Source: Dehalococcoidia bacterium
GTDB lineage: Bacteria; Chloroflexota; Dehalococcoidia; Bin125
DNA length: 64,000 nt
Direction: 5' to 3'
Assembly: GCA_965215555.1 (NCBI GenBank)
Contig: OZ244071.1
Coordinates: 267,778-331,777, forward strand
Translations under genes and position numbers: made by a program
Shown: piece by piece, positions 28,969 to 54,527 of the stretch
Layout of the letters: the number at the start of each line of letters is the position of its first letter
Numbering within the stretch: the first letter of the stretch is position 1
The notes under the pieces: model-generated
Database searches by the model: none
Told to the model about the DNA's origin: nothing
The model's input: only the letters and a program-made list of their open reading frames with translations

Positions 28969-29297
28969 GTTCTCAACGCTTTCTGTGGAGATGTGGCAGG
29001 CGGACTCGCGGAGGGCGGGGCGGCGAGTCTAGTGTACCTGTGCGTTGGACGAAGCTGGGTTTGTCGCTTCGGGCGTCGCGGGGCAGGAATTGGGCCTCGA
29101 AACGTCTAGACAGGGCCGCTGAGATTCCTTACCCTAACTGCCCAGGTGATCAGACAAGTGATCCTTTTCGAAGCCGCTAACGCTGCCTCCATCGCGTCTA
29201 GTCGCCTGTGGAAGATACATAAGCTCAGCCGAAAGCCGTTTTGTTTCCTTCATTGAGGAACACACGTGCTACTATTGACCCTACAGGAGTCAGCGAC

Positions 29298-34997: not shown

Positions 34998-35333
34998 GAG
35001 ATGACCGCCGCATTCGTCGAAGATGAACGGCAACTCGACGGCAGCCGACACGTTGAGATCGTGGGCGATACTGATGTCGCCGACGCGGCGTTGAGGTTGG
35101 TTGTCGACCGCGACGGCCAGGTTGAGGAGGCAGAGTTGAGCCTAGAGATTCACGAGGGATCGGACGGCACCTTCGCTGTGATTGAATTTGATCGAGACGC
35201 TCAGGGCGCGTCGCCAGACAACCTGGATCTGCAGTTGAACGGTATCGGAGGGCAATTGGTGCTGCGTCAACGGGATGACGGCGATATCGATCTGTCCCTG
35301 ACACTATTCGACGCATCGGGAGACCCGACATGA
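34998..35333 (+). CDS. Hypothetical small acidic protein, translationally coupled to cofD
   Basis: ATG 34998 (MTAAFVEDERQLDG...). 111 aa with GC-rich third codon positions. Its stop overlaps the cofD ATG (ATGA). Confidence 0.35.
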   Translation, partial: EMTAAFVEDERQLDGSRHVEIVGDTDVADAALRLVVDRDGQVEEAELSLEIHEGSDGTFAVIEFDRDAQGASPDNLDLQLNGIGGQLVLRQRDDGDIDLSLTLFDASGDPT

Positions 35334-36271
35334 GCCGGGTCGCGGTACTGGCTGGTGGCGTGGGAGCTGCGAGGTTTCTTGACGGTCTGGTCAGAGTCGT
35401 TCCGCCAACAGACGTCACGGCCATCGTGAATGTTGGCGATGACATGGAGTGGTCTGGTTTACACATCTCCCCAGACCTCGACACGGTCACCTACACATTG
35501 GCCGATCTCGTCAATCCGGAGACCGGCTGGGGCCTGCGTGGCGAATCTCGCCGGACGCTGGACCGGCTGTCGGAACTGGGTGGTCCAGACTGGTTCATGA
35601 TTGGTGACCTCGATCTGGCCACGCATCTGTATCGGACACATCGGCTGTCGCAGGGCGACCGGCTCTCAGCGATTACCCAGGACTTGACTCGCCGACTCGG
35701 TCTGGAACTGGCGATCACTCCGGTCACCGATGATCGGTTGCGGACTGTTGTACAGACCGATTCGGGCGAGCTGGCGTTTCAGGACTACTTCGTCAGACGC
35801 CGTGCGGCTGATCCGGTTCACGCCCTGCGATTCGATGGCGCAACAAGCTCCAGTCCCGCGCCGGGCGTGATTGATTCTCTGCAGGAGGCCGACGTTATCG
35901 TCATCGCTCCGTCGAATCCGTTCCTTAGCATCGACCCGCTGCTCAGCGTTCCAGGCGTACGCGACGCGGTGACGTCGAGTGCGGCGCCTGTGGTTGCGAT
36001 TAGTCCGATCATCGGGGGTCAGGCTGTCAAGGGTCCGGCGGCCGACATCTTGCAGTCCCTTGGCCACGATGTGTCAGCCCTGGGCGTAGCACGAATCTAT
36101 GGCTCGCTGGCCGATGTATTCATTCTGGACGAGGAAGACGCATCGCTGGCGTCCGAGATTGAAGCGGAAACGGGGATGCGCGTTGTCGTGATGGCGACAC
36201 TGATGAGTGACTTGGAGGCGAAGAAGGCGTTGGCAACGGGCACACTACAGGCGGCGCTCGATGCCGCCTAG
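35330..36271 (+). CDS. cofD: 2-phospho-L-lactate transferase (F420 biosynthesis)
   Basis: 'MSRVAVLAGGVGAARFL' and the CofD/UPF0052 fold. Confidence 0.8.
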   Translation: MSRVAVLAGGVGAARFLDGLVRVVPPTDVTAIVNVGDDMEWSGLHISPDLDTVTYTLADLVNPETGWGLRGESRRTLDRLSELGGPDWFMIGDLDLATHLYRTHRLSQGDRLSAITQDLTRRLGLELAITPVTDDRLRTVVQTDSGELAFQDYFVRRRAADPVHALRFDGATSSSPAPGVIDSLQEADVIVIAPSNPFLSIDPLLSVPGVRDAVTSSAAPVVAISPIIGGQAVKGPAADILQSLGHDVSALGVARIYGSLADVFILDEEDASLASEIEAETGMRVVVMATLMSDLEAKKALATGTLQAALDAA

Positions 36272-36968
36272 CAACATGCTGGCCAACAAGCTGGACGTGG
36301 TTGCGGTTGTTCCGGTTCGCGGCCTTCCTGCCGGCAAGCGTCGGTTGGCGGCGCTGTTGGATGTCGATGATCGCAACGCGCTGGTGCTGGCGATGCTGGA
36401 TGACGTCGTCGCGGCGCTCGTAGCGGCTGAGTCGATTGATCGGGTGGTGATTGCCTCGCGGGACTCGGAAGCTCGGGACGAAGCGGCGCGGCTGAACGTG
36501 GGTTTCCTCGATCAAACCGAACTGCGCCTGGGCTACAACCGCGCGGTCTCGTTTGCGCAGGAAGCACTGTCGGACGCTGGCGCGCTGCTGATCGTGCCGG
36601 CTGATGTGCCGCTGATTACGCCGGATGCAGTGGACCTGGCGGTGTCATCTGCGCCTGACGGCCCGGCGGTCGTCGTGGCGCCAGCACATAACGGCGGGAC
36701 GAATGGTCTGTTTCTGCGACCGCCGGATGTCATCGCGCCGCAGTTTGGTCCATCGTCTGCTCGTGCGCATGCGCAGTCGGCGGCAGCGGCAGGTGAAGCC
36801 GGGGTTCCGTTCAGGGAGGCGCGGATCGACGTGTGGGCATTCGATCTTGACACCCCGACCGATCTGCAGTGGCTCCAGGAGGTGCTGCCGGAGTTGCCTC
36901 AGGAGATTGCGCCGAACACCCGACGCTGGCTGGCGGCACATGTCGAGGGGACAGGCACTGCGACGTAG
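36261..36968 (+). CDS. cofC: 2-phospho-L-lactate guanylyltransferase (F420 biosynthesis)
   Basis: 'VAVVPVRGLPAGKRRLA' nucleotidyltransferase motif. Overlaps the cofD end. Confidence 0.7.
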   Translation: MPPSNMLANKLDVVAVVPVRGLPAGKRRLAALLDVDDRNALVLAMLDDVVAALVAAESIDRVVIASRDSEARDEAARLNVGFLDQTELRLGYNRAVSFAQEALSDAGALLIVPADVPLITPDAVDLAVSSAPDGPAVVVAPAHNGGTNGLFLRPPDVIAPQFGPSSARAHAQSAAAAGEAGVPFREARIDVWAFDLDTPTDLQWLQEVLPELPQEIAPNTRRWLAAHVEGTGTAT

Positions 36969-39804: not shown

Positions 39805-40436
39805 GTCGATAGTTTCGCCGCTTCGAGGACCGTGTGTCGCGGCCCTTGATGAACTTTCGCGACCTGATCGGCTCCGAAGATCATGGCCAGACGTCGCTGT
39901 AGATAACGGCGCAATCCATTGACTGCCACCACGACGAGCGAGCCACCGTCGGCCAATGCATCGTGTGCCTCGAGCAATAGCTGATCGAGGGCGTCATTGC
40001 CGGCCTGTGCGGGCAGGTTGGACACCACGAGTTCGTAGGTTCCGATGGATTGACTGGGCAGGTCGCGAATGCCGTCGCTGAGCGTCGCTGTGGTGTTACT
40101 CAAGTGATTTCGTGCCGCGTTGTCGTTCGCGGCTTCAACGGCGCGGATGTCTGTGTCGACCATATCGATCTTCGAATCAGGCCAGCGGGCGGCCAACGTC
40201 AGTCCGATTGCACCGTAACCGCATCCAAGGTCGAGGATTCGCGGCATCGGCGAAAGTTGATTGAGTTCTCGGAGCAGTAAAGCGGTGCCTTCATCGAGCG
40301 CTCGGGCGGAAAACAGTCCGTGCCGGGTCACGAGTTCGAGCTGCTGGTCGCCGATCTCGATGGTCACGCGAGGCTGCGTTGCGAGATGTTCCCGCAAGTG
40401 GTCGAGCCGGGCGGGTTCGACACGGGGCAAGGTCAC
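39801..40436 (-). CDS. Class I SAM-dependent methyltransferase (RsmC/RlmG-like small MTase domain)
   Basis: 'ILDLGCGYGAIGL' motif I and the 'NLP' (NPPY-like) motif. Confidence 0.7.
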   Translation of the reverse strand: MTLPRVEPARLDHLREHLATQPRVTIEIGDQQLELVTRHGLFSARALDEGTALLLRELNQLSPMPRILDLGCGYGAIGLTLAARWPDSKIDMVDTDIRAVEAANDNAARNHLSNTTATLSDGIRDLPSQSIGTYELVVSNLPAQAGNDALDQLLLEAHDALADGGSLVVVAVNGLRRYLQRRLAMIFGADQVAKVHQGPRHTVLEAAKLST

Positions 40437-41524
40437 AACGGATCGATTCGTGCGGACACTGGAGTGAAGTCGTCCATGTGCTCAGGGTCCATCCTGCGGA
40501 CGATCCCCGGGTAGATGCCGGTGCGCTTTCCGGCGGTCGATCCGGCGACGGCGATTTGGATGTGCGAGGGATGGGCAACCTTCGACATTGGACGATTGAG
40601 GTCTGCTTCGGTGATTCCCTCTCGCTTGAGAGTGGGCTGGGTGATGCCTCCACCGACTCGGTCGGTGGCGAGACGATCGCGGATCGGTCGTGCCGTGAGT
40701 TCCATGATCGCTTCTCGGACATTGGCTTTGGACCAACCGTCCTGACGAAAGACACCAGCATGCTCGGGACTGATCACCAGCATGGACGGGCCGATCTGTC
40801 CGTTGGGGCTGAAGATGCCGTCAAATCCCATCGCCAGGGAGCCGACGAGCGCTCTTGCTGTGCGGCTGTACTCGTCGACGCAGACTCGAGGTCCGCCGAT
40901 CACGGGCAGGAGCGTGACGACGCTGTCGTCGGGCTGGTAGCCGTACTCGACGTGCAGCGGTTGCCAGGGCGAGGCATCCTCGTGCTCTGCAAAGGTCAGC
41001 GTGAACTTGTGCGCGCCGCCCTGGACGGTCTGGTCGATTTCGCCCTCTCGAGCGCCGCCGATGTTGCGCAAGACCAGCCGCAAGGCTCGGCCGATGGTCA
41101 TGTTGGCGCGATTGCCCTGTCCCAGTGCGTTGAGCCCCCAGTTCATCCTGATCTGCTCGCGAACCGGGCCATTGACAATGACCATGGGCGAAATGCCGTC
41201 TGTACTGGCGACCGTCCCGTGTAAGGGAAACTGGCCACCGGCGGCAGCAGCAACGGCGGCGATGATGGCCGGAAAGAATGTTGGCGATGCTCCGGCCATG
41301 ACTGCGTTGATCGCGATTTTCTCGACCGTGGCCGGCGCGTAGTTTGGCGGGATCTTGCCAATCACTTGTTCAGGAGAGCGATTTGTGTTGGCCAACATGC
41401 GCTCGACCCGTTCGCGAGTTGGAGGGACAACTGGTAGGCCGTCGGTCACACGCTGGTCGAAGAGGAACTCGTAGATGTCGTCGTGGTCGGCGACGTCAAT
41501 GGTGCGCGAGCCAAGGTTGATCAT
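40433..41524 (-). CDS. Uncharacterised conserved protein, family X copy 1 (selenoprotein-locus paralog)
   Basis: Start ATG 41524 (MINLGSRTIDVADHDDIYEFLFDQRVTDGLPVVPPTRERV...). Shared motifs 'INAVMAG', 'LHGT', 'GQGNRAN..GRALRL..RNIGG', 'QGG.HK'. Confidence 0.55.
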   Translation of the reverse strand: MINLGSRTIDVADHDDIYEFLFDQRVTDGLPVVPPTRERVERMLANTNRSPEQVIGKIPPNYAPATVEKIAINAVMAGASPTFFPAIIAAVAAAAGGQFPLHGTVASTDGISPMVIVNGPVREQIRMNWGLNALGQGNRANMTIGRALRLVLRNIGGAREGEIDQTVQGGAHKFTLTFAEHEDASPWQPLHVEYGYQPDDSVVTLLPVIGGPRVCVDEYSRTARALVGSLAMGFDGIFSPNGQIGPSMLVISPEHAGVFRQDGWSKANVREAIMELTARPIRDRLATDRVGGGITQPTLKREGITEADLNRPMSKVAHPSHIQIAVAGSTAGKRTGIYPGIVRRMDPEHMDDFTPVSARIDPL

Positions 41525-42630
41525 GAACGAACAAGGGCGGACGGGGGCACGAACGTGGGCGCAGGCGCTAGGGGATTGCCGTCGCCGAAGATGCCCTGGT
41601 AGATGCTGGTCCACTTGCCGGCGTGGCTGCCGGCAACGGTGATCTGAATGAACGAGGGATCGGCCACTTTCGACATGAGCATATCGAGTTGATCTTCGGT
41701 CAGACCGTGCTGTTCGGGCAGGTATTCATTGATGCCGCCACCCATGCTTGGTGTGGCCAGACGCTCGCGGAGCGGGAGCGCGGTGAACTCCATGATCGCT
41801 TCGCGGATGTTGTCTTTTGACCAGCCGTCGGCGCGATAGACATCAGCGTGTTCGGGACTGATCACGAACATCGTGGGTGAGACCTGACCTCGCGGCTTGA
41901 CCACCTGCTGGAAGGCCATGGCGATCGATCCGGTCAGCGCTCTCCCGTTGCGACTGGTCTGATCAATACAGACTCGGGGACCGCCGGTGATTGGGATCAG
42001 CGAGACGACACTGTCGTCGGGTTCGTAGCCATGCTCCACGTGGAATGGTTCCCAGGGCGAGTAGTCTTCGTCCTCCGCATAACTGAGCGTCCACTTGTGG
42101 CCGCCACCCTGGATGGCCTGTTCGATCTCGCCGGGCACGGCTCCGCCGATGTTGCGCAGCATCAGGCGGAGTGCGCGTCCGAGAGTTGAGTTGGCTCGGT
42201 TGCCCTGGCCGAGGGCGTTGAGACCCCAGTTCATGCCGATCTGCTCGCGGACTGGTCCGTTGACCAACATCATCGGGGCGAGTCCGGCCGTCGTGGCGAT
42301 TGACCCGTGTAGGGGAAACTGCCCCCCGGCGGCGGCTTCGACGGAAGCCAGGACTGTCGGGAAGAACTGGGGACTGCAGCCAGCCATGACGGCGTTGATG
42401 GCTGCCTTCTCGACGCTCATCGGCGCCGTGTTGGGCGGCAGCGTCGCAACGATCTTCTGAGGATCACTCCAGTGCTCTGGAGCGCAGGCGAGCATACGGT
42501 CGACACGCTCACGAGTGGGCGGGATGACGGGCAGGCCGTCGGTGATTCCCTGGGCGAACATGAACTCGTAGACATCGTCATGCTCGGCGATTTCGATGAT
42601 CCGAGAGTAGAAGTCGGTTTCGCCGGGCAC
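41521..42630 (-). CDS. Uncharacterised conserved protein, family X copy 2
   Basis: 'DDVYEFMFAQGITDGLPVIPPTRERVDRML...' Its stop overlaps the copy-1 start (ATGA). Confidence 0.55.
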   Translation of the reverse strand: MPGETDFYSRIIEIAEHDDVYEFMFAQGITDGLPVIPPTRERVDRMLACAPEHWSDPQKIVATLPPNTAPMSVEKAAINAVMAGCSPQFFPTVLASVEAAAGGQFPLHGSIATTAGLAPMMLVNGPVREQIGMNWGLNALGQGNRANSTLGRALRLMLRNIGGAVPGEIEQAIQGGGHKWTLSYAEDEDYSPWEPFHVEHGYEPDDSVVSLIPITGGPRVCIDQTSRNGRALTGSIAMAFQQVVKPRGQVSPTMFVISPEHADVYRADGWSKDNIREAIMEFTALPLRERLATPSMGGGINEYLPEQHGLTEDQLDMLMSKVADPSFIQITVAGSHAGKWTSIYQGIFGDGNPLAPAPTFVPPSALVRS

Positions 42631-42752
42631 GGCATTGCCTTGTCGATTGGGTGCGGCCCCTCGGTCCAGGGGAACGCCCTCACCCTTACCCTCTCCCAGC
42701 GGGAGAGGGGATTGAATAGATTCGGGGGCTCTCAGCAGAGGCGGTCTGAGAG

Positions 42753-43283
42753 CTATTCGACGGGCGCCATCAAGGTGTCGAGGATTTCGTCGACGAAGCG
42801 TTCGGCGTGTTCGTGCATCTCGGCGTCGGTGCGGTCCTGCATCGGATGCGGGATGAAGACGCGACGCACTTCTTCAAGTCCGAGACGCTCAGCCTGATGG
42901 CTGGCGGCTTTGATGAACTCGGAAGTCGCAATGAAGACGCTGGGCTTGCCCTGCAGTTCGAAGAAAACGGTGTCGTGCACACTGCACGTCGTGCAGGATC
43001 CTCAATCAGCGAGCGCTTCGATGACGAAGTCGCACTCCTCCAGGATGGCATCTTTGATCGGTTGCGGGGCCGGCTTGGCGACGGTCGGCTTCATGAAGCG
43101 TCGGGTCTCGACGCCGGGCGCACGCTCGTGGAGGAGCTGCTCGAGTCGGTCGAGGAAGACGTTGCCACGCGGCTTGGAGATGTCGAGCAGGGCGATCGTC
43201 CCATGCAGCGCTTCCGGGCGCGGCGTGAGAGAGCGCTTGATCGGCACTCGTTCGTCGGTTGGATCAAGGATCTGGGTAACCAT
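42753..43283 (-). CDS. Putative selenoprotein with in-frame UGA (Sec) followed by G-S-C, a UGSC-type motif
   Basis: Two listed ORFs (43002..43283 and 42753..42980) are in the same frame, separated by a single TGA at 43002..43004. The product reads ...DFVIEALAD-U-GSCTTCSVHDTVFFELQGKP.... The run CUGCACGACGUGCAG just 3' of the UGA can fold into a stem-loop. Confidence 0.6.
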
Positions 43284-43364
43284 TGGACCTCTCCATCAAC
43301 GCGCTCGGTGCAGGGTCTGGCGCGTTGTGTGTTTGTTGACAGTCTACTCGTTGCAACTGATGAC

Positions 43365-45041
43365 TTAGGGTTTGCGGACGCTCGGTTCGAACGCGCCGAG
43401 TCTGGGTCCGCCAGCGGGACTCTTGCTGTTGCCGGTGCGTCGCGGCCTGATTTCGGTCGCGCCGTTGGGACCGATATTGGCGCTGGTTGCGGTGGAATAC
43501 ACGCCGGTTGCCCAGCCGCCAAGGATGGTGGAGAACTTCGCCGCGGACGATCCGGCGACGACGAGGATGATGTTCGACTTGTCCTGGAATTTGGCGACGG
43601 GGTGGTCGAGCGCTGCTTCGCCCCCGAATCGCTCGACGACGCTGGGCGGCAGGCCGCAACCGGCATCGTCAGAGCGGAGACGGTACTTGAGCGGGATGGA
43701 TGTCTCTTCCATGATGCACTCGCGCACGTCGTCTTTGGACCAGCCTGAGCGTCCGAAGATGCCTGCGTGGTCGGGGGAGAGGACGACGAGGGTGTCGACC
43801 ATCGGCGACTTTGGGTCTTGCATGCAGCTCATCGAAGCGGCGAGCGTGCCGGCCATGCCTCGCCCGTCTCGGGAGCGTTCGTCGGCGATGGTGGCTGGGC
43901 CACCGGACATCGCCGTCAGCGTGGCGACATCGTCGGTGGGATCGAAACCGAGCTCAACGGCGAGCGATTCCCAGGGGCTGGCGTCCTCGTTCTCGGCGAA
44001 GTTCATCGTCAGACGGTGCGGGCCGCCCTGTGTGGCTCGATCGGTACCGCCAGGGATGCTGCCACCGACATTTCGCACGCACAGTCGCAGAGCCCTGCCG
44101 ATGGCTGCGTTGGCTCGGTTGCCGGATCCCAACGCTCCGTGGAGGTAGTTCATCCCGATTCGGTCTCGAATCGGTCCGTTGAAGATGCCGACGGGCGTGG
44201 CGCCCATCGTGGTCGCGAGCACGCCGTGGACGTTGAAGCTGTCGGTGCAGGCGATCTCGATCAGCGCGATGATCGAGGGCATGTACACGGGCTTGGCTCC
44301 GGCCATGACTGCGTTGATCGCAATCTTCTCGACTGTGATCGGCGCGAGATTGGGCGGGACGACCGCGACCTCCTCCTGAGGGTCGCGCGGAGTGCCTTGC
44401 AGCATTTTCCAAACGCGCTCGCGCGTCGGCGGCACGACGGGGAAGCCGTCGGTGTAGCCCTGCTCGTACATGAAGTCGTGAATGTCGTCGCTGGACGCCA
44501 AGTCAACGAGGCGCGAGAGCAGGTCGCCGCTCTTGATCGCTTGCAGCCGTTCGTAAACGCCCGGCTCGTAGTTGCGTGCGCCGCATCCGGGTCGCTGGAC
44601 GGGGAGCGCATCCCAATCGATGTCGGTGTCGCCATCGGGTCGGCCGGCGAGCGCCATCGACTCTTTGGCGATTTCGTGCCACTCGTGCCTGTCGAAGCCG
44701 AACGTCTGCAGGGTGCAGTTCTGTTCTTCGTCGTACAGGAACAGCGTCGGCACGGTGTCGATATCCGTCTCGTAGGACAGATCGAGCGCGTCGTCGTCCA
44801 GCAACGGCATTGTCAGGTCGTGACGGTCCTTGAGGACGGGGATGTCCTCGGTCTTCTGTACGGCGACCCAGACATCGAGTCCGTCGTCAGTGGCTCGGTG
44901 GACTGCCTCGAGCAGCGGCAGGGTGAGGTTGCAGGTATCGCAGTCTTCTTTGACCAGCGCCAGCAGGACGGGGCCCTGCGGCGGGAACTGCATTTCCTGA
45001 CCGTTGGCGTTTTGGAGGGAGAATTTAGTAGGTGGATGCAT
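43365..45041 (-). CDS. Thioredoxin-like (CxxC) domain fused to family X copy 3
   Basis: N-terminal ~150 aa has a thioredoxin-like fold with 'CDTC'. The remainder aligns to copies 1 and 2 ('YTDGFPVVPPTRERV', 'INAVMAG', 'GSGNRANAAIGRALRL'). Confidence 0.6.
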   Translation of the reverse strand: MHPPTKFSLQNANGQEMQFPPQGPVLLALVKEDCDTCNLTLPLLEAVHRATDDGLDVWVAVQKTEDIPVLKDRHDLTMPLLDDDALDLSYETDIDTVPTLFLYDEEQNCTLQTFGFDRHEWHEIAKESMALAGRPDGDTDIDWDALPVQRPGCGARNYEPGVYERLQAIKSGDLLSRLVDLASSDDIHDFMYEQGYTDGFPVVPPTRERVWKMLQGTPRDPQEEVAVVPPNLAPITVEKIAINAVMAGAKPVYMPSIIALIEIACTDSFNVHGVLATTMGATPVGIFNGPIRDRIGMNYLHGALGSGNRANAAIGRALRLCVRNVGGSIPGGTDRATQGGPHRLTMNFAENEDASPWESLAVELGFDPTDDVATLTAMSGGPATIADERSRDGRGMAGTLAASMSCMQDPKSPMVDTLVVLSPDHAGIFGRSGWSKDDVRECIMEETSIPLKYRLRSDDAGCGLPPSVVERFGGEAALDHPVAKFQDKSNIILVVAGSSAAKFSTILGGWATGVYSTATSANIGPNGATEIRPRRTGNSKSPAGGPRLGAFEPSVRKP

Positions 45042-45143
45042 GGCAGTAGTTTAGCGTTGACGTTCGTCAGATTGACCCTGTCGCGCGTTAGCGCGACACT
45101 ATGCCAAGACACGATAGCCGTAACGGTTGAGGGGTGTGATCCA

Positions 45144-45473
45144 ATGTCCCAGCTTCGACGCTTGCTGCTGGCGCTTGTGGTGATTGGTGGACTGAGTGCG
45201 TTGACACTCGGGGTCGCAGCAGCAGGCGAGTACGCCATCGAAGAGCCGGCGCAAGTAGTTGAGGCGGGCGGCGACGAAGAGGACAGCGTTCACGTTTCGG
45301 ATGAGTCGCTGGCGACTTCGCTGTTCATCCCATTCTGCTTTGTCGGTGCGACGTTGGCGGTGTTCGTCTGGGCAATCCGCGCCCGGGCGAGACGCGAGGA
45401 CGACGAAATCCCGATGCCATGGTGGCGGACACGTCAGTGGTACACACGCGGCACCGAAGAGGACGAGGCGTAA
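45144..45473 (+). CDS. Hypothetical small secreted/membrane protein
   Basis: ATG 45144 with upstream GAGGGG. Signal-like N-terminus 'MSQLRRLLLALVVIGGLSALTLGVAAAG', acidic middle, TM helix, and basic tail. Confidence 0.4.
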   Translation: MSQLRRLLLALVVIGGLSALTLGVAAAGEYAIEEPAQVVEAGGDEEDSVHVSDESLATSLFIPFCFVGATLAVFVWAIRARARREDDEIPMPWWRTRQWYTRGTEEDEA

Positions 45474-45637
45474 CTGGCCTGCTTCTGCCGTTGCGAGGCA
45501 GATGCCGATAGCGGGCAGAGTTCCCCTTAGACACTGGGAATTCGATAGTCACCTCCCATCCTCTGTCACTCCGTGGCATCTCCCCCGCAGGGGGGAGGTG
45601 AGGCACGAACGTGCGGGCTCTAGGGCGTGTTCGCGCT

Positions 45638-45842
45638 AGCCATCTGCTTAACCAGAATTCCGTCGTTGCCGCGCTTGTCGCAGCCTGCCCCTCACTTGAT
45701 GGGGGGGCAATCTCGTCGAGTGTTGCACGGACAGTTGCGGCGAATACAGCGAGATACCCGCGGCAAGCGCGGGTATGACAATCTCTTGTTGGCCCGGGTA
45801 GGACGGGAACTCCTGGACGAACCGCTACGTGTGAACAGGTCC
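45638..45842 (-). repeat. Structured intergenic repeat, copy D (inverted, two internal sub-repeats)
   Basis: Near-identical to the reverse complement of copy A (AGCCATCTGCTTAACCAGAATTCCGTCGTTGCCGCGCTTGTCGCAGCCTGCCCC...). Lies between convergent genes. Confidence 0.8.
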
Positions 45843-45857
45843 TAGCTGCGACCTGCC

Positions 45858-46964
45858 CTAGAACAGCAACTGGCCTAAGCGACGGCGATAATCCGCGACG
45901 ACTGGCTGGTTTTCGCCGAGCATTGCGAAGATTCCCAGGAGGGTCTTGCGCGCGGCTTCGTCGCCGGCGGATTTGTCGATCTTCACCGACTCGAGCAACT
46001 CGTCGAGCGCTTCCATCCACTGACCCTCGATCGCCAGCAGGCAACCGTGCCTGAAGTGGGCGAGCGGATCGCCGGGATTGCTGGAGACGGTTTGCCTGAT
46101 CTCGTCCGGCTCGAACCCTTCGAGGGCCGCCATCAGCTCCATCGATGTGAGGACACTCTTACTCAATGGGTGATTGGGCCAGCGACGAGCGAGCTCGGCT
46201 GCTCGGTCAGTCTCTCCGACCCTCGAGAGGATGGCAGCGAGTCCGACTCCTGCCGGCTCGTGGTTGGGATCTTCTTCCAACGCCGACTCGAAGTGCAATC
46301 GGGCAATCGGAATCTGATTTTCCTGCATCATCCGATAGCCCTCGGCCGCTTTCATGTCTGCTTCGGAGGGAATCAGAGAATCGAAGAAGGTTCGGACCTG
46401 ATCCTCGGGCAATGCGCCGACGAACTTGTTGACCAATTGACCTCCGACGAACGCGAATACTGCCGGAATGCCCTCGACCTGTAGCGCCTGGGCGACCTGC
46501 GGGTTTTCGTCGGTGTTGACCTTGACCAGTTGCACCTGGCCGTCGCGCTCGTATGCGAGCTTCTCCAGGATCGGACCCAGGACTCGGCAGGGCCCACACC
46601 AGGGGGCCCAGCAATCGACGATCACGGGCAGCTCATGGGAGCGCTGCAGCACATCCTGCTGGAATGTCGCATCGGTGGAATCGATGACGGCCGCGACGTG
46701 GCCATGCAACCCCTGTGGCTCGGTGCCGTCAGGCGCTTGCCCTGGCTCAGATCTCTGTGAGGGTGGTGGCGTCTCACGAATCGGGACGGGCGGTGGCGGC
46801 GGTGCGGCTGGCTGCTGCTGAACGCTACGTATTGGTTGTCCCGAGGCCGAGTAGATGACCGGCCCGGAAGGCTGAGGCGGCTGCTGTTGAGGAGGAGGCT
46901 GTGGCGCGCCGCGTTGCACTCGGTCACGGGGGAACGGGATCGGGTCGGGCGGTCGCTGCGTCAT
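45858..46964 (-). CDS. Thioredoxin domain + TPR-like co-chaperone (YbbN/CnoX-like) with Pro/Gln-rich N-terminus
   Basis: 'WAPWCGPCR' thioredoxin motif followed by TPR-like helical repeats. Confidence 0.75.
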   Translation of the reverse strand: MTQRPPDPIPFPRDRVQRGAPQPPPQQQPPQPSGPVIYSASGQPIRSVQQQPAAPPPPPVPIRETPPPSQRSEPGQAPDGTEPQGLHGHVAAVIDSTDATFQQDVLQRSHELPVIVDCWAPWCGPCRVLGPILEKLAYERDGQVQLVKVNTDENPQVAQALQVEGIPAVFAFVGGQLVNKFVGALPEDQVRTFFDSLIPSEADMKAAEGYRMMQENQIPIARLHFESALEEDPNHEPAGVGLAAILSRVGETDRAAELARRWPNHPLSKSVLTSMELMAALEGFEPDEIRQTVSSNPGDPLAHFRHGCLLAIEGQWMEALDELLESVKIDKSAGDEAARKTLLGIFAMLGENQPVVADYRRRLGQLLF

Positions 46965-47294: not shown

Positions 47295-48167
47295 CTAAGC
47301 GGACATCTCGGAGCGAGCACGCTGAATTGATCGAGCGACGGTCGAGACACTCAACGCCCAGGCGACCTCCTGGACATCGTGGACTCGGACCACGTGTGCT
47401 CCCAGCCAGGCGGCTAACACGTTGAATGCCACCGTCGCCTCCAACATGCCCGGCTTGCCCTGAGCGTCATGCGAGCGGAGCTCGCCGTGTCCTAGCAGCT
47501 CGGCCAGGAAGCCTTTTCGCGACGCCGAAATCAGCACCGGGTGACCGAGCTGGGAGAGATTGGGTAGATCGAGCAGGAGACGAAGATTGTCGTCCAGTCC
47601 GCGGCCAAACTGGAATCCGGGATCGATCCACACGTCGGGCGCGCCCGCTTGCTTGATTTCTTGCGCTCTTCGGTCGAGGAAGACCCGGACTTCTGCGGCG
47701 ACATCGTCGTATTCGTGCTCGACTTCGCGGTGCCGTTGCGGTCGGCCCCGCATGTGCATCACGGCGATTGGCGTCTTTGTCTCGACGGCCACGGCGACGG
47801 TCTCCGGGTCGGCTCCGGTGATGTCGTTGATCAGATGAGCGCCGGCGGCAACGGCCGCTCGGGCCACATCCGCCGTCCAGGTGTCAACCGAAATCAGGTG
47901 ACCCTCACTGACCAGCGATTCGACGACCGGCGTAACACGGGCGATCTCTTCGTCGACGGAGATCTCTGCTGCGCCCGTTCTTGTCGACTGAGCACCGACG
48001 TCGATGATCGAGGCGCCTGCGGTTCTGAGCGCCTCGGCGCGGCGCGGCGCATCTCCGACATCGACGATCGAATCAGCAACGGGGGAGTCGGTGGCGACGT
48101 TGAGGATGGCCATCACGTGGCAGCGGTCGGTGGCGTCGAGCGTTTGGCCGCCCAATTCGATCAGCAT
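47295..48167 (-). CDS. folP: Dihydropteroate synthase
   Basis: 'MAILNVATDSPVADSIVDVG...IIDVGAQSTRTG' and pterin-binding motifs. Confidence 0.8.
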   Translation of the reverse strand: MLIELGGQTLDATDRCHVMAILNVATDSPVADSIVDVGDAPRRAEALRTAGASIIDVGAQSTRTGAAEISVDEEIARVTPVVESLVSEGHLISVDTWTADVARAAVAAGAHLINDITGADPETVAVAVETKTPIAVMHMRGRPQRHREVEHEYDDVAAEVRVFLDRRAQEIKQAGAPDVWIDPGFQFGRGLDDNLRLLLDLPNLSQLGHPVLISASRKGFLAELLGHGELRSHDAQGKPGMLEATVAFNVLAAWLGAHVVRVHDVQEVAWALSVSTVARSIQRARSEMSA

Positions 48168-48177
48168 TGTTGTCGCC

Positions 48178-49611
48178 TTAGCGCCGACGGGTGAGGTAAT
48201 GCGGACTGCGGCCGTAGAAGACCTGTGCCGATTCCATGATCGATTCGTTTAATGTCGGGTGTGCATGAATCGACTCAGCGATATCCGCGACTCGGGCGCC
48301 TAACTCGACTGCCAGCACGCCTTCGCCGATGAGTTCTCCCGCACCGGGTCCCACTACTTGCATGCCCAGCACTCGTTCAGAGCCTTCTTCGATCACCAGC
48401 CGCGTCAGGCCATCGTTGCGGCCCGAGGCGGTTGCACGACCCAGCGCAGCCCAGGGGAAACTCACTGTGGTGGCCTCAATGTCAAGCGCGCTGGCGTCCG
48501 ACTGTGTCAGTCCGCACCAAGCGATCTCGGGGTCGGTGAAGATGACCGCCGGTACGGCGAGCGGGCGGAAGGCTGACGGCTCGCCGAGGATCGCGTCTAC
48601 GGCCACGCTGGCCTCGGCGGTCGCCTTGTGGGCGAGCATCGGATCCCCAGCGACATCGCCGATTGCGAATATGGACGGCTCGGCTGTTCGCCGCTGCTGG
48701 TCTGTGACGATGAATCCGCGATCGTCAATGCGTGCGTTTGTGCGTTCCAGTCCGAGTCCGGCGCTGTTGGGACGTCTGCCTGTAGCGATCAACACTCGCT
48801 CGAAGACCTCGGTGCGTTTGACACCGTCTTGGTCGACAATGACGGCGGCGACACCGTCCTCTACTTCTTCGAGTGAGGCAACTGAAGTGTTCACGTGCGT
48901 GGCCTTCAGTCTGGTGCGCAAGCTGCGTTCGAGGATGCGCACCAGGTCGCGCTCGACACCGCTCAGGATCTCAGGCAGTGCTTCGACCACAGTCACCGCG
49001 GTGCCGAGCTCGGCATAGACGGTTCCCAGCTCCAGACCGATGTAGCCACCGCCGATCACGAGGAGGGACTGTGGAACATCTCGCAGTTCCAGCGCGTCGG
49101 TCGAGTCCATGACGCGGTCTGACTCAACCTGCAGAGATCGAGGGATGGCTGGCGTCGAGCCTGTCGCCACAATCAGTGCGTCGAAGTCCAGCGGCAGGAC
49201 TTCGCCGTTGCGTTCGATGTTGAGTTGGCCTGCGTCACGGATTCGTCCGTAGCCCTGTTGATACTGCACGCTGTGTTGTCGACGAAGGAGTCCCAACCCA
49301 TTCGTCATCTTGCGAACGACGCTGTCCTTCCAGTCGCGGAGCGCATCGACATCGATCGTTGGGTCGCCGAATGTCACTCCCCAATCGGATGCGTGACGAG
49401 CTTCACGGATCAGCTTGGCAACGTGCAGGAAGGCCTTTGACGGGATGCAGCCTTCATAGAGGCAGGCGCCTCCGGGTTGCGCTCTTGCATCCACGAGCGT
49501 GACATCGAGGCCACGCTCGGCGGCGTGGAATGCGGCTGGGTATCCGCCAGGTCCAGCGCCCAGCACCACGAGGCGGAAGTTGTCACCCCCAGTGTTGTCT
49601 GAACTGACCAC
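48178..49611 (-). CDS. lpd: Dihydrolipoyl dehydrogenase (E3)
   Basis: FAD motif 'VVLGAGPGGY', redox-active 'GGACLYEGCIPSK', and the C-terminal dimerisation HAHPT region. Confidence 0.85.
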   Translation of the reverse strand: MVSSDNTGGDNFRLVVLGAGPGGYPAAFHAAERGLDVTLVDARAQPGGACLYEGCIPSKAFLHVAKLIREARHASDWGVTFGDPTIDVDALRDWKDSVVRKMTNGLGLLRRQHSVQYQQGYGRIRDAGQLNIERNGEVLPLDFDALIVATGSTPAIPRSLQVESDRVMDSTDALELRDVPQSLLVIGGGYIGLELGTVYAELGTAVTVVEALPEILSGVERDLVRILERSLRTRLKATHVNTSVASLEEVEDGVAAVIVDQDGVKRTEVFERVLIATGRRPNSAGLGLERTNARIDDRGFIVTDQQRRTAEPSIFAIGDVAGDPMLAHKATAEASVAVDAILGEPSAFRPLAVPAVIFTDPEIAWCGLTQSDASALDIEATTVSFPWAALGRATASGRNDGLTRLVIEEGSERVLGMQVVGPGAGELIGEGVLAVELGARVADIAESIHAHPTLNESIMESAQVFYGRSPHYLTRRR

Positions 49612-49614
49612 GCG

Positions 49615-51018
49615 TCAGCTCCCGAGCGCCAGCACGAGCGGCTGGCGGATGACGTCGGCGATCCAGGTCATGAATCGCGCGCCGTCCGCGCCGTCCATGA
49701 CTCGGTGATCGAACGTGAAGGAAAGCGGCAGGATGCTGCGCGGCTCCCAGTTGTCGATGGCCTCGGACCAGACCGGGCGGCGTTCGGCTCGGCCGATGCC
49801 GAGGATGGCGGTGTTGGGATGGTGAATGATCGGTGTGAAATGGCCCGTACCCATGCCGCCGAGATTGGTCACCGTGAAGCTGCTGCCGCGGAAGTCCTGC
49901 AAGCCGAGATCCCCGGAACGGGCGCGCTCGGAGATGTCGGTCAACTCGACTGAGATCTGGATGATGTTCTTTTCGTCGACATCGCGAATGACCGGGACGA
50001 CGAGTCCGCGTGGCGTGTCGACGGCGACGCCGAGATGTACGTAGTGCTTGAGCACGAGTTCGTCATTCTCGGCGTCGATTGAACTGTTGACGTGTGGATG
50101 CGCCTTGAGCGCTGCGGCGGTGATCTTGAGCAGAATGGCCGTGATGGTGAGACGGCCGCCTTCCTGTTCGGCGCGGTCTCGATAATCTCGTCGGACCTGC
50201 TCGAGTTCTGTGACGTCGGCGGTGTGGAACAACGTGACGTGAGGCACCTCGTGCCAGGAAACGGACATATTGCGCTTGATCGTGCGGCGCAGCCGGCTCA
50301 TTGGCACCCGCTCGACCGTCCCGAACTCGGAGAAATCAGGCAATGGACCAGGAGTGAGCGCGGTATGGCCGAGGCTCGGCGCCTGCACAGGCGTCTCGCG
50401 CGCGTGCCGCTTGATGTCCGCCTGATCGATCCGACCGCCTGGTCCACTGCCTCTCACGCCGCGAATGTCGACACCGATTTCGCGGGCAAAGCGTCTCACA
50501 GAAGGAGATGCGAACACTGGACGCGACTCGAGGTCGCCCTCAACTAGCGGGGCCGGGGCGGCGGGCGAGACGTGCAGGATTGGAGCGGGATGATTTTCCT
50601 CAGCTGACGGCGATGGAGGATCCGGCGAGAGCGGCATGACCTGATCGGAGTCGGTCGCATCGGCTGGCGTCAGTTGAGGCGGCGACGGTGGTGACTCGGT
50701 AGGCGTGGTGGGCGGTGGGCTGGCAGCGGCCTCGTTCGAAGATGCGATTGTCACGGAACCAACGGCAGCGTCGACACTGAGCACCGGGTCTCCTGGTCGG
50801 ATGGTGTCTCCGACTCGCACATGGATCTCAGTGACTGTGCCGGCAACCGAGGAGGGCAGATCCAGCGTGGCCTTCTCCGTCTCGATCTCGACGATCGGCT
50901 GTTCGAGCGCGATCAGATCACCGACGGCTACGTAAATCTGCAGGACATCGGCTTCCTCGATGTCTTCACCGAGATCGGGCAGGAGCGCCAGGCCGGGATT
51001 GGATGTGGTGGTGGTCAT
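49615..51018 (-). CDS. 2-oxo acid dehydrogenase E2 (dihydrolipoamide acyltransferase)
   Basis: Lipoyl domain 'IETEKATLDLPS', Pro/Ala linker, and catalytic 'DHRVMDG'. Confidence 0.8.
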   Translation of the reverse strand: MTTTTSNPGLALLPDLGEDIEEADVLQIYVAVGDLIALEQPIVEIETEKATLDLPSSVAGTVTEIHVRVGDTIRPGDPVLSVDAAVGSVTIASSNEAAASPPPTTPTESPPSPPQLTPADATDSDQVMPLSPDPPSPSAEENHPAPILHVSPAAPAPLVEGDLESRPVFASPSVRRFAREIGVDIRGVRGSGPGGRIDQADIKRHARETPVQAPSLGHTALTPGPLPDFSEFGTVERVPMSRLRRTIKRNMSVSWHEVPHVTLFHTADVTELEQVRRDYRDRAEQEGGRLTITAILLKITAAALKAHPHVNSSIDAENDELVLKHYVHLGVAVDTPRGLVVPVIRDVDEKNIIQISVELTDISERARSGDLGLQDFRGSSFTVTNLGGMGTGHFTPIIHHPNTAILGIGRAERRPVWSEAIDNWEPRSILPLSFTFDHRVMDGADGARFMTWIADVIRQPLVLALGS

Positions 51019-51026
51019 CTGATTTC

Positions 51027-53729
51027 CTATCGCAACATAGGATCAGTGCGGGTCGGGTCGATGCCCAGTTGGTCGCGGGCTTTGAGCACCAGGTCGCCGT
51101 CGATTTCATCTCGGCGGCTGAGAGCGCTGAGCGCCGACCAGGCAACGTGGTTTGCATCGACCTCGAAGAAGTCGCGCAGTGATTCTCTCGTGTCGGACCG
51201 ACCGAATCCATCGGTTCCGAGCGCCGTCATGGAACTTGGCAGCCAGCGTGCCACGAGGTCGGGCAGCGACGAGGTGTAATCGGTCGCCGCAACGATTGGT
51301 GCGTCGCATGATCCGAGTGATGTTTGGAGCCACGACTCACGCGGGTCTTCGAATGGATGCAGCCGATTCCAGCGATCAATCTGTAGCGCTTCGCGCCGAA
51401 GCTCGGTGTAGGAAGTCACAGACCAGACATCGGCGCGGACATCGTAGTCATCGCGGAGGATCTGTTGCGCTCGGCGAACTTCATTGAGGATGGGCCCGCT
51501 GCCGAAGAGTCGCACCTGCGGCGCCTCGCACGGAGACAGCGGGTAGATGCCGCGCAGGATTCCCTCTCGCACGATCTCCGATTCTGGCATCGGTGGCTGG
51601 ACGTAGGACTCGTTCTCGACCGTGACGTAGTAGAAGATGCTCTCGTCCTCGTCGTGCATGCGGCGGATGCCCTCTTGCACGATGACGGCGATTTCGTAGG
51701 CATATGCAGGGTCGTAGGAGACGAGGTTCGGGATCGTCGAAGCGAGGATGTGGCTGTGTCCGTCTTGGTGTTGCAGACCCTCGCCGTTGAGCGTGGTCCG
51801 GCCGGCGGTTGCGCCGATCAGGAAGCCTCTAGCCCTGGCGTCGCCCGCGGCAAAGGCGAGGTCGCCGACTCGTTGGAGTCCGAACATCGAATAGAAGATG
51901 AAGAACGGGATCATCGGCACATCGAGCGACGAATAGGCCATGCCGCTGGCGATAAACGATGACATCGCGCCGGCCTCGGTGATGCCTTCCTCGAGAATCT
52001 GGCCGTCGCGCGATTCCTTGTAGTAGAGCAAGCGATCGGAGTCGACTGGCTCGTAGAGCTGGCCGGTGGAGGCGTAGATGCCGAACTCGCGGAACATGCC
52101 TTCCATGCCGAACGTGCGCGACTCGTCGGGAACGATGGGCACGATGTGCTGGCCCAGTTCGCGGTCACGCATCAGTCGGCTGAGCATCCGCACGAAACCC
52201 ATGGTGGTCGATGCTTCGCGGTCGCCTGTGCCCTCGTGGAACTCGGAGAATGTCTCGTCGGGTGGCGACGTGAGGTGCGATTTGGGCGAACGGCGTTCAG
52301 GGACATGCCCGCCGAGCGCTGCTTTGCGTGTCGAGATGTAGTTGGCTTCGCGGCTATCTCGCGACGGGCGATAGAGCGGTGCTCCGACTACTTCGTCGTC
52401 CGACAACGGAATGGCGAACCGGTCGCGGAACTGCATCAGCTCGCGCTCATTGAGCTCTTTCTGCTGGTGCGTAATGTTGCGGCCTTCGCCAGCTTCACCG
52501 AGTCCATAGCCCTTGATCGTCCGGGCGAGGATAACGGTCGGTGCGCCGCGGTGATTGGTGGCCGCGTCGTAGGCGGCGTGCACTTTGAGCGGGTCGTGGC
52601 CGCCGAGGCGCATTCGCCACAGTTCGTCGTCGGAGATGTCGTCCACCATTCGCAGCAGTCGAGGGTCCACGCCCCAGAAGTGCTTGCGGATGTAGCTGCC
52701 GCCCGCGACGGTGTACTTCTGGTATTCGCCGTCGACCACTTCGCCCATGCGCTGAATGAGCAGTCCGTGCTCGTCGCGCGCGAGCAGTTGATCCCACTCG
52801 GAACCCCAAACGACCTTGATCACGTTCCAGCCGACGCCGCGGAATACGGCTTCCAGTTCCTGAATGATCTGTCCGTTGCCTCGCACAGGTCCGTCGAGTC
52901 GCTGCAGGTTGCAGTTGACGACGAAAATGAGATTGTCGAGCTCTTCCCGCGAAGCAAGCGCAATTGAGCCAAGGGACTCCGGCTCATCGGTCTCGCCGTC
53001 GCCGAGGAAGCACCAGACCTTGCGGTCGGTCACTGGCAGGAGATCCCGATTCTCGAGATAGCGAATGAAGCGAGCCTGGTAGATGGCCTGCAGCGGTCCG
53101 AGGCCCATCGAGACCGTGGGGAACTGCCAGTAGTCGTCCATCAACCACGGGTGCGGATATGAGGGCAAGCCACCGGAGAGTTCCTGGCGGAACTTGTGCA
53201 GTTGCTCGGGCGCCAGCCGGCCCTCGACATAACCACGGGCGTAGATGCCCGGGGCGGAATGACCCTGGAAGTAGATCAGGTCGCCACCGGAGGGATGATC
53301 CTGGCCACGGAAAAAGTGATTGAAGCCGACTTCGTACAGAGTCGCGGCCGACGCGTAGGTCGAGATATGACCGCCGATGCCGTGGTTGTTCTGATTCGCC
53401 TCGACGACCATCGCCATCGCATTCCAGCGAATGATCGACTTGATCCGCCGCTCGATGTTGAGATCACCCGGATAGGGCGGCTGTTTCTCGATCGGTATCG
53501 AGTTGACGTACGGCGTCTGCGAGGTGACCGGCAGACGTATGCCTGAGCGTTGCGCTTCGATCTGAAGTGTTTGCAACAAGCGAGACACTCGCTCGGGTCC
53601 GCGACGTCTCGCGACATCACGGAGCGAGTCGATCCAGTCGTTGGTTTCCAACCAATCGTCGGCCCCGGCGGTGTCTCGCACCCGTTCAAGCGCAGTTTGC
53701 CAGGGAGATTCGGAGGTGGTCATCGTCAT
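51027..53729 (-). CDS. aceE: Pyruvate dehydrogenase E1 component (homodimeric AceE type)
   Basis: 900 aa. Thiamine-pyrophosphate (TPP) binding motif 'GDGETDEPES'. Confidence 0.85.
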   Translation of the reverse strand: MTMTTSESPWQTALERVRDTAGADDWLETNDWIDSLRDVARRRGPERVSRLLQTLQIEAQRSGIRLPVTSQTPYVNSIPIEKQPPYPGDLNIERRIKSIIRWNAMAMVVEANQNNHGIGGHISTYASAATLYEVGFNHFFRGQDHPSGGDLIYFQGHSAPGIYARGYVEGRLAPEQLHKFRQELSGGLPSYPHPWLMDDYWQFPTVSMGLGPLQAIYQARFIRYLENRDLLPVTDRKVWCFLGDGETDEPESLGSIALASREELDNLIFVVNCNLQRLDGPVRGNGQIIQELEAVFRGVGWNVIKVVWGSEWDQLLARDEHGLLIQRMGEVVDGEYQKYTVAGGSYIRKHFWGVDPRLLRMVDDISDDELWRMRLGGHDPLKVHAAYDAATNHRGAPTVILARTIKGYGLGEAGEGRNITHQQKELNERELMQFRDRFAIPLSDDEVVGAPLYRPSRDSREANYISTRKAALGGHVPERRSPKSHLTSPPDETFSEFHEGTGDREASTTMGFVRMLSRLMRDRELGQHIVPIVPDESRTFGMEGMFREFGIYASTGQLYEPVDSDRLLYYKESRDGQILEEGITEAGAMSSFIASGMAYSSLDVPMIPFFIFYSMFGLQRVGDLAFAAGDARARGFLIGATAGRTTLNGEGLQHQDGHSHILASTIPNLVSYDPAYAYEIAVIVQEGIRRMHDEDESIFYYVTVENESYVQPPMPESEIVREGILRGIYPLSPCEAPQVRLFGSGPILNEVRRAQQILRDDYDVRADVWSVTSYTELRREALQIDRWNRLHPFEDPRESWLQTSLGSCDAPIVAATDYTSSLPDLVARWLPSSMTALGTDGFGRSDTRESLRDFFEVDANHVAWSALSALSRRDEIDGDLVLKARDQLGIDPTRTDPMLR

Positions 53730-53816: not shown

Positions 53817-54527
53817 ATGTCGATATCGGCGGTGGATGTGACCCAGAGGGAAACAGTCCGAGGCCTGGAGCGGTCTCAGATCGTGCAGTCGTCGCACAGC
53901 GGGACAGTGCCATACGAGCAGGCTGCTGCCTGGCAGGCGAACCGCGCACAGGCCGTTGCCTCGGGATCGAAGCCGGAAATCATCGTGTTCCTGGAACACA
54001 CTCCGGTCTACACACAGGGGCGACGCGGTGGTCGAGAGCATGTGTTGCGCGCGCTGGACGCGCCGATCATCGACACCGACCGTGGCGGTGATGTTACGTT
54101 TCACGGTCCTGGACAGTTGGTGCTCTGGCCGCTCTTGCGTCTGCGTGAACGGGGGATGGGGATTGCCCGTTACATCCGCGGCCTCGAAGAATCGGTGATT
54201 CAGGCGACCCGAGCCTTCGGCATTGAGGCCGAACGCGTCAAGGGACGCCCAGGCGTATGGATCGGCAATCGCAAATTGGCGAGTGTCGGCGTTCGGGTGC
54301 AATCGGGAGTCAGCAGGCATGGCCTGGCTCTCAACTGCGATGTCGAACTGAGCTGGTTTGACGACATCCGCGCCTGCGGGATCGCTGAGAGCAGGGCTAC
54401 GTCACTTTCCAATGAAACCGGCAAGCAGATTGGCGTTGACGACGCCAGCCCGGAACTTGAGCGCTGTATCGGCGATGTGTTCGGACTGCGATTGTCGCCG
54501 GTTTCGGACCTTAGGATGCTCAGATGA
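53817..54527 (+). CDS. lipB: Lipoyl(octanoyl) transferase
   Basis: 'EHTPVYTQGRRG' and BPL/LPL catalytic domain features. Confidence 0.8.
   Translation: MSISAVDVTQRETVRGLERSQIVQSSHSGTVPYEQAAAWQANRAQAVASGSKPEIIVFLEHTPVYTQGRRGGREHVLRALDAPIIDTDRGGDVTFHGPGQLVLWPLLRLRERGMGIARYIRGLEESVIQATRAFGIEAERVKGRPGVWIGNRKLASVGVRVQSGVSRHGLALNCDVELSWFDDIRACGIAESRATSLSNETGKQIGVDDASPELERCIGDVFGLRLSPVSDLRMLR

Follow-up and report, generated by a model that had tools for sequence, protein, structure and literature searches.

A probable selenocysteine codon and its candidate SECIS hairpin in a UGSC-family gene of a Dehalococcoidia bacterium

Does an in-frame TGA on the minus strand of a Dehalococcoidia contig end one small gene ahead of another, or is it read as selenocysteine (Sec, U) within a single gene? 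The codon lies in a stretch of 64,000 nucleotides (contig OZ244071.1, positions 267,778 to 331,777; the whole stretch is referred to here as the window), and the original prediction was that two open reading frames (ORFs), 43002..43283 and 42753..42980, are one frame split by this TGA only, encoding a selenoprotein with the motif U-G-S-C-x-x-C. Both are present in the ORF list, the joined frame has 176 sense positions, and the codons at 43004..42984 do read U-G-S-C-T-T-C. In our assessment, which is based on comparison of sequences, the gene is very probably a selenoprotein of the UGSC family, in which UGA is read as Sec with the help of a hairpin, the selenocysteine insertion sequence (SECIS), at nucleotides (nt) 17–31, where the U of UGA is nt 1.

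Reading frame, family membership and fold

The complete gene occupies 43283..42753 on the minus strand, from ATG (43283..43281) to TAG (42755..42753). Its translation consists of 93 sense codons, the TGA at 43004..43002 and 82 further sense codons, which gives 176 residues including the predicted Sec at position 94. The peptide flanking the TGA is ...FVIEALAD-*-GSCTTCSVHD..., so that the UxxCxxC motif is followed by S-V-H-D. A Shine-Dalgarno-like GGAGAGG (43294..43288, minus strand), read from the sequence and presumably functional, is located 4 nt 5' of the ATG. Public gene calls (ENA, JGI and NCBI records) cut the locus into products of 93 and 75 amino acids (aa).

An in-frame TGA with a nearby Cys pattern is, taken alone, not rare in this DNA. 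The window, with a GC content of 62%, contains 71 TGA codons, the UGSC site counted, that are flanked on either side by 50 or more open codons and show a loose Cys/Ser/Thr-x-x-U motif. The other 70 are mostly arginine-rich off-frame readings of GC-rich DNA, and no second selenoprotein gene was recognisable among them. The UGSC site stands above chance because the scores of family hidden Markov models (HMMs) exceed their curated cut-offs and because the TGA and the downstream frame are conserved in homologs.

For HMM scoring, Sec was entered as Cys. The protein reaches 153.5 bits with NCBIfam NF041046, 'UGSC family (seleno)protein' (curated cut-off 125, E = 3.8e-45), which confirms the name given in the original prediction, and 151 bits with Pfam PF24696, 'UGSC' (cut-off 25), where residues 4–172 correspond to profile positions 1–171 of 172 and the domain spans both sides of the UGA. 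The window protein is a plain member of a catalogued selenoprotein family; the call is correct and not new. The family is the 'UGSC-containing protein' of Zhang and Gladyshev (2007, PMC1976440; 2008, PMC2398784), a selenoprotein without known function that was first met in Hyphomonas neptunium (PMC1976440), and a 2026 review lists it still without a function (PMC13188914).

For the comparative analysis, a scan of one genome per species yielded 598 related stretches, from which we kept 80 loci of five lineages (Dehalococcoidia and other Chloroflexota, Gamma-, Alpha- and Deltaproteobacteria, and Binatia) and to which we added five metagenome contigs that encode the protein of the window itself. 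All 85 loci have TGA at this position, and G-S-C-T-T-C follows in every one. Among the 79 distinct nucleotide versions, the codons after UGA change only synonymously (GGN; TCN or AGY for one serine; TGY; ACN), and further 3' the third positions vary and the first and second positions are held. This pattern indicates that the frame is translated through the UGA. In 24 diverse sequences, 15 of the residues encoded 3' of the UGA are invariant; C94 (U), G95, S96, C97, T98, C100, H103 and D104 do not vary in this set.

A search of 5.8 billion proteins gave mostly matches of 96–100 residues that end exactly at ...EALAD, together with two full-length proteins that have Cys at the next position; when the C-terminal part was used as the query, the matches were pieces of 56–85 residues, mostly 70–76. 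Most homologs in the databases are such N-terminal pieces, or C-terminal pieces of 72–85 aa. Automated gene calling breaks off at the TGA and resumes 3' of it. Of the 149 top-ranking representatives examined, 84 stop at ...AD, and no fewer than 17 are full-length with Cys. Full-length homologs with Cys include P0001, P0004 and P0275. The expectation that homologs would carry Sec or Cys here holds: Cys is the only substitute found at position 94, except for Ser in the distant P0276. TGA also ends 12 of the window's 39 other likely genes in the ordinary way; the code is therefore standard, and recoding is site-specific. A pseudogene or a sequencing error is excluded, and the objection that the TGA might be an error of assembly fails, by the occurrence of the same TGA in independent long-read and short-read assemblies and in many lineages.

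An AlphaFold model was made of the full-length Cys homolog P0001, which is 50% identical to the window protein, from an alignment in which N-terminal and C-terminal fragments had been merged. The model, which is confident (mean pLDDT 88.8, pTM 0.83), consists of one (beta-alpha)5 domain, with strands 32–37, 60–65, 87–93, 116–121 and 140–144 alternating with helices; the Sec/Cys position comes directly after strand 3, and the C-x-x-C part opens helix 3. The predicted fold spans the UGA and looks flavodoxin-like, not like the thioredoxin fold suggested in 2008. Searches of PDB sequences with the UGSC protein and with the 24-sequence profile gave nothing meaningful. On this model, the two 'halves' of the public annotation would build a single flavodoxin-like domain, with Sec in the context U-x-x-C-x-x-C-x-x-H-D.

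These data bear directly on the reading adopted in the public records, in which the TGA is a true stop and the locus encodes two small proteins of 93 and 75 aa. The second of them might begin with the GTG at 42980, and Sec machinery was not seen in the 64-kb window. However, the seven codons from the TGA to this GTG (G-S-C-T-T-C-S) are invariant as a peptide in the 85 loci and change synonymously, and a Shine-Dalgarno-like sequence is not expected to be conserved between TGA and GTG. In addition, one Pfam domain covers both parts, the Cys homologs are continuous, and the fold needs strands of both halves. We regard two separate proteins as extremely improbable.

Hairpins downstream of the UGA

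Two hairpins that overlap and are mutually exclusive can be drawn in the mRNA 3' of the UGA. One is the inverted repeat CUGCAC-GAC-GUGCAG at nt 9–23 (42996..42982, minus strand), in which C9–C14 pair with G18–G23. The other, at nt 17–31 (42988..42974, minus strand), is CGUGCA-GUG-UGCACG, in which C17-G-U-G-C-A22 pair with U26-G-C-A-Y-G31 around the loop G23 U24 G25 (42982..42980); frozen synonymous sites and pairing make it the best-supported candidate for the SECIS core.

In the 79 nucleotide versions, the third-codon sites 6, 9, 12 and 15 vary freely and sites 30, 33 and 36 vary again, and the four sites between them are frozen: nt 18 is G in 78 of 79, and nt 21 is C, nt 24 is U and nt 27 is G in 79 of 79 each. 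At the level of codons, the second Thr is ACG except for a single ACA; the second Cys uses UGC alone, compared with UGC:UGU = 45:34 for the first; the Ser at the frozen site is always AGU, compared with six codons in use for the other Ser; and the V/L/M residue is always NUG. All six pairs of the nt 17–31 hairpin form in 59 of 59 distinct sequences. Pair 18–30 is G-C in 50 of these, G-U in 8 and A-U in one, the locus L076, in which the lone A18 is matched by U30.

The published model of the bacterial SECIS has a loop of 3–9 nt, a stem of 4–16 bp, a distance of 16–37 nt from UGA to loop and a minimum free energy of −7.5 kcal/mol or lower, with a loop G within the first two positions that is usually followed by G or U (PMC13188914). 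With a 3-nt loop, a 6-bp stem and a spacing of 19 nt (positions 4–22), the nt 17–31 hairpin falls within the limits of loop, stem and distance. Its loop G23-U24-N25 also fits, and G23 and U24 are invariant (79 of 79) even though nt 24 could change synonymously. The V/L/M codon begins with N25, and for this reason that residue alone varies. Candidate lower stems, 12–15/36–39 and 8–11/52–55, pair more often than in column shuffles, mostly via clade-wide changes, and can be proposed only tentatively as an extension of the SECIS.

The nt 9–23 hairpin, or an alternation of the two overlapping hairpins, could also be considered as the element that directs Sec insertion. In the window sequence it is as stable as its competitor (−7.5 versus −7.4 kcal/mol); the frozen G18 and C21 are compatible with it as well; and, since its five core pairs are fixed by the peptide, nearly every homolog is able to form them. 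However, its loop begins 11 nt after the UGA, outside the 16–37 nt of the model, and no more than 41 of 79 versions have G at loop base 15. Its pair 9–23 is broken in 19 of 59 sequences, and the A18 of L076 breaks its pair 14–18 but is compensated by U30 in the nt 17–31 hairpin. The frozen U24 and G27 are not accounted for by it, its conserved core is less stable than the nt 17–31 hairpin in 79 of 79 homologs, and the mean ensemble probability of the central pair is 0.05, compared with 0.60 for the nt 17–31 hairpin. We consider a SECIS at nt 9–23, or an alternation of the two, unlikely. Of the hairpin named in the original prediction, the inverted repeat itself is real, but it is probably not the SECIS. 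We favour the nt 17–31 hairpin in this role because of the frozen synonymous sites, the A-U compensation and the published SECIS rules.

The same frozen sites bear on which tRNA reads the UGA. Reading by a standard near-cognate tRNA (for example for Trp, Cys or Arg), with the hairpin as a stimulator of read-through or a by-product of the peptide, would agree with the fact that the conserved amino acids already dictate most bases of the hairpin, and the Sec machinery of this genome is assumed. However, the peptide does not explain the frozen AGU (never AGC or UCN), UGC (never UGU), ACG and NUG, and the loop G-U at nt 23–24 matches the register of SelB binding in fdhF. The homologs show the usual Sec/Cys pattern, and the family is catalogued as a selenoprotein (PMC2398784, PMC13188914). 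Such read-through appears to us very improbable.

Under Sec insertion, the UGA at 43004..43002 would be decoded as Sec during translation and not as a stop. By the established bacterial mechanism, the nt 17–31 hairpin of the mRNA would be the SECIS that binds SelB with Sec-tRNA(Sec), and the SelB-GTP-Sec-tRNA(Sec) complex would insert Sec. This would place the region under a dual constraint, in which the same nucleotides serve the RNA hairpin and the invariant peptide T-C-S-(V/L/M)-H and only N25 is free.

Several observations weigh against Sec insertion by way of the nt 17–31 hairpin. Genes selA, selB and selD and tRNA-Sec were not found in the 64-kb window, as judged from a tRNA scan (no tRNA gene in the window), from a search for SelA/SelB/SelD domains in 30 further ORFs and from the neighbours annotated in sister contigs; the Sec-decoding trait of the organism is assumed from the conserved pair of UGA and SECIS. 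A scan of 40000–46000 with Rfam (E ≤ 10), which has no family for the bacterial SECIS, gave chance matches only. On folding, the 76 nt around the UGA are no more stable than shuffles (z = 0.07), and in the window sequence the two hairpins are equal in energy, as given above. Thermodynamics alone thus neither supports nor separates them. The bare nt 17–31 hairpin, at −7.4 kcal/mol, lies just above the −7.5 limit, although the value depends on the length of sequence folded (−16.4 kcal/mol when the hairpin is enforced within a 60-nt context). The conserved peptide also fixes almost every stem base, so that true covariation comes down to L076 and the G-C/G-U changes. The two Cys-form homologs with available DNA point one each way: L087 (321–380) has lost the hairpin codons and has GCT ATC there, and L086 (1229–1288) keeps TGC AGT GTG CAC, perhaps as a 'fossil' SECIS from before a recent replacement of Sec by Cys. 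Finally, the structural model describes a Cys homolog with 50% identity and not the window protein.

The partner domain and the gene neighbourhood

The gene upstream of the UGSC gene (43365..45041, minus strand) encodes 558 aa, with a thioredoxin-like N-terminal part that contains C34-D-T-C37 (44931..44942) and an unannotated C-terminal domain of about 365 aa, referred to below as the partner domain. In homologs of this protein, the N-terminal part matches the AhpC-TSA/Redoxin models PF00578/PF08534; the window's own copy gave a weak ResA match only (E = 0.0048) and no Pfam match. The C-terminal ~365 residues are paralogous to the products of both genes 3' of the UGSC gene, which are stand-alone partner-domain proteins of 369 aa (41521..42630, minus strand) and 363 aa (40433..41524, minus strand). 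The two are 62% identical, and the second has 363 aa in the sister contigs as well. Its longest ORF starts at GTG 41614, has 393 codons for amino acids and overlaps the preceding gene by 94 nt; public calls start it 30 codons later (363 aa), by which the overlap mostly disappears. The 122-nt spacer between the UGSC stop and the next gene (42631–42752, minus strand) can form three strong hairpins (−53.6 kcal/mol, z = −2.0 versus shuffles), namely CUCUCAG...CUGAGAG, CCCUCUCCC...GGGAGAGGG and a third; they have no T-run and are therefore not a classic intrinsic terminator.

The partner domain has more than 7285 detectable homologs and about 50 invariant residues, mostly polar. It is matched by no Pfam or NCBIfam model, a PDB sequence search gave nothing meaningful, and it has no confident solved relative. 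It is present in 72 of 81 loci, and in 67 of 81 its gene, on the same strand, has its end fewer than 500 nt upstream of the UGSC gene. A downstream paralog occurs in 16 of the 81, all of them closer Dehalococcoidia relatives of the window. Within up to ~6 kb on each side, the domain was not detected in nine loci (L024, L030, L037, L039, L043, L048, L057, L074 and L075), where UGSC thus seems to occur by itself; in L075 only about 380 nt of upstream sequence is available, so that absence cannot be judged there. Several of the loci lacking the domain are Tepidiformaceae, and five of them (L039, L043, L048, L057 and L074) have the motif E-G-L-A-D. No alternative conserved neighbour was seen in the five of the nine that were inspected.

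The association extends to Cys forms and to single polypeptides. In L086, the partner gene is paired with a Cys-form UGSC gene, and the stop and start of the two overlap. UGSC and the partner domain are naturally fused in P0409, P0353 and P0325, each of which ends at ...ALAD, and the 651-residue, frameshift-riddled P0274 is probably another. The Global Ocean Sampling (GOS) paper described a 'UGSC/Unknown_1' fusion, in which Unknown_1 is probably the partner domain. Conserved adjacency together with the fusions argues that UGSC and its partner act together. The N-terminal tail of UGSC may be a docking peptide for the partner: this tail, I-L-D-P-T-D-E-R-x-P-x-x-R (residues 1–28; 43200–43283, minus strand), is nearly invariant and is kept in the fusion proteins, and the first ~20 residues, with invariant L-D-P-T-(D)-E-R...R, are conserved across phyla and have low confidence in the monomer model.

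As to the chemistry, Sec94 and Cys97, perhaps with Cys100, would most likely cycle through a selenenylsulfide on the flavodoxin-like scaffold, and this Sec/Cys centre would be either the reactive subunit for the upstream protein, with its redoxin part and domain of unknown kind, or recycled by it. A metal or iron-sulfur site in U-x-x-C-x-x-C-x-x-H with Sec as a ligand is a real alternative to a redox centre, in that three Cys/Sec residues spaced by x-x with an invariant His-Asp resemble cluster and metal motifs and the comparison proteins bind iron-sulfur clusters via Cys and His (PMC12176620). We rate it as rather improbable.

Other genes of the region were noted in passing. Just upstream on the UGSC strand, 45858–46964 (minus) and 47295–53729 contain a thioredoxin-TPR protein, a pterin-binding protein and a complete pyruvate dehydrogenase E1/E2/E3 set. 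On the plus strand are a lipoyl synthase (54524–55414), a class II (B12-dependent) ribonucleotide reductase with a TSCPD domain (29241–32189) and the F420 biosynthesis genes cofD/cofC (35330–36968). The reductase and the F420 genes agree with an origin in Dehalococcoidia/Chloroflexota; the closest genomes are Dehalococcoidia metagenome-assembled genomes, with 94–99% protein identity.

The finding mainly corrects annotation, in that public calls split this locus and most of its homologs and the active-site peptide is lost between the pieces. Beyond this it provides three leads. Frozen synonymous sites by themselves suffice to locate the SECIS, and they put it in the register of Escherichia coli fdhF. 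The predicted fold resembles that of flavodoxin and not that of thioredoxin. The partner domain, which is strongly conserved and in some proteins fused to UGSC, has over 7000 homologs and neither a family model nor a confident solved relative. Taken together, these leads define a concrete pair of proteins for expression and assay, and the remaining interest lies in the function of the UGSC family and in that of the large partner domain, which lacks a structural placement.

Comparison with known selenoproteins and SECIS elements

At the level of the family, the window gene shows no difference from the UGSC proteins of the literature, with which it shares U-G-S-C at the same position, a length of ~175 residues, an occurrence in aquatic and soil Chloroflexota and Proteobacteria and the lack of a known function. 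Sec forms far outnumber Cys forms in both data sets, 255 versus 21 in the GOS metagenome survey and 84 versus at least 17 among the representatives analysed here. The description of 2008 departs from the present findings in two respects: the fold predicted here is a flavodoxin-like (beta-alpha)5, compared with 'likely Trx-like' at that time, and in this lineage three partner-domain paralogs flank the gene, not one.

In E. coli fdhF, SelB binds an upper stem-loop at nt 15–31, whose loop contains G23 and U24 and in which U17 is bulged (PMC8659212). The UGSC hairpin is likewise an intra-coding hairpin directly after the UGA, has G23/U24 in the apical loop in the same register and ends at nt 31. 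Its 3' arm U26-G27-C28-A29-C30 is presumably identical to that of fdhF. Unlike fdhF, the UGSC hairpin has a paired C17 in place of the bulged U17, a loop of 3 nt (GUN) instead of 4 and a stem that begins at nt 17 instead of 15; the long lower stem is not clearly conserved, and 12–15/36–39 and 8–11/52–55 show lineage-level covariation only.

With the thioredoxin-fold UxxC/CxxU selenoproteins (Trx-, Prx-, Grx-, DsbA- and SelW-like), UGSC shares a Sec two residues from a Cys at a helix N-terminus, a presumed redox function and a neighbouring thioredoxin-like CxxC domain. The mixed sheet of that fold (b-a-b ... a-b-b-a) is not found in the UGSC model.

The spacing U94-G-S-C97-T-T-C100 is the U-x-x-C-x-x-C of GrdB/F/H, the selenoproteins of glycine, sarcosine and betaine reductase (PMC6778437, PMC13188914). 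The shared motif alone does not show homology to GrdB/PrdB: six diverse UGSC proteins gave no match to GRDB (PF07355) even at E ≤ 10, and no solved structure of PrdB or GrdB was seen in the PDB searches. The hosts also differ, since those of UGSC are mostly aerobic aquatic and soil bacteria and not Stickland fermenters, and the UGSC partner, unlike PrdA and GrdE, has no similarity to pyruvoyl proproteins and no confident solved relative. In the reductases, the Sec subunit, which is small in PrdB, is encoded beside a larger partner (PrdA, GrdE) and works with it and with a thiol or electron donor (PMC11229817). It is conceivable, although we hold this view with less than even confidence, that UGSC and the ~365-aa domain form a widespread two-component selenoenzyme, in which the Sec subunit would attack a substrate on the large subunit and the thioredoxin-like domain would recycle it, much as PrdB acts with PrdA or GrdB with GrdE.

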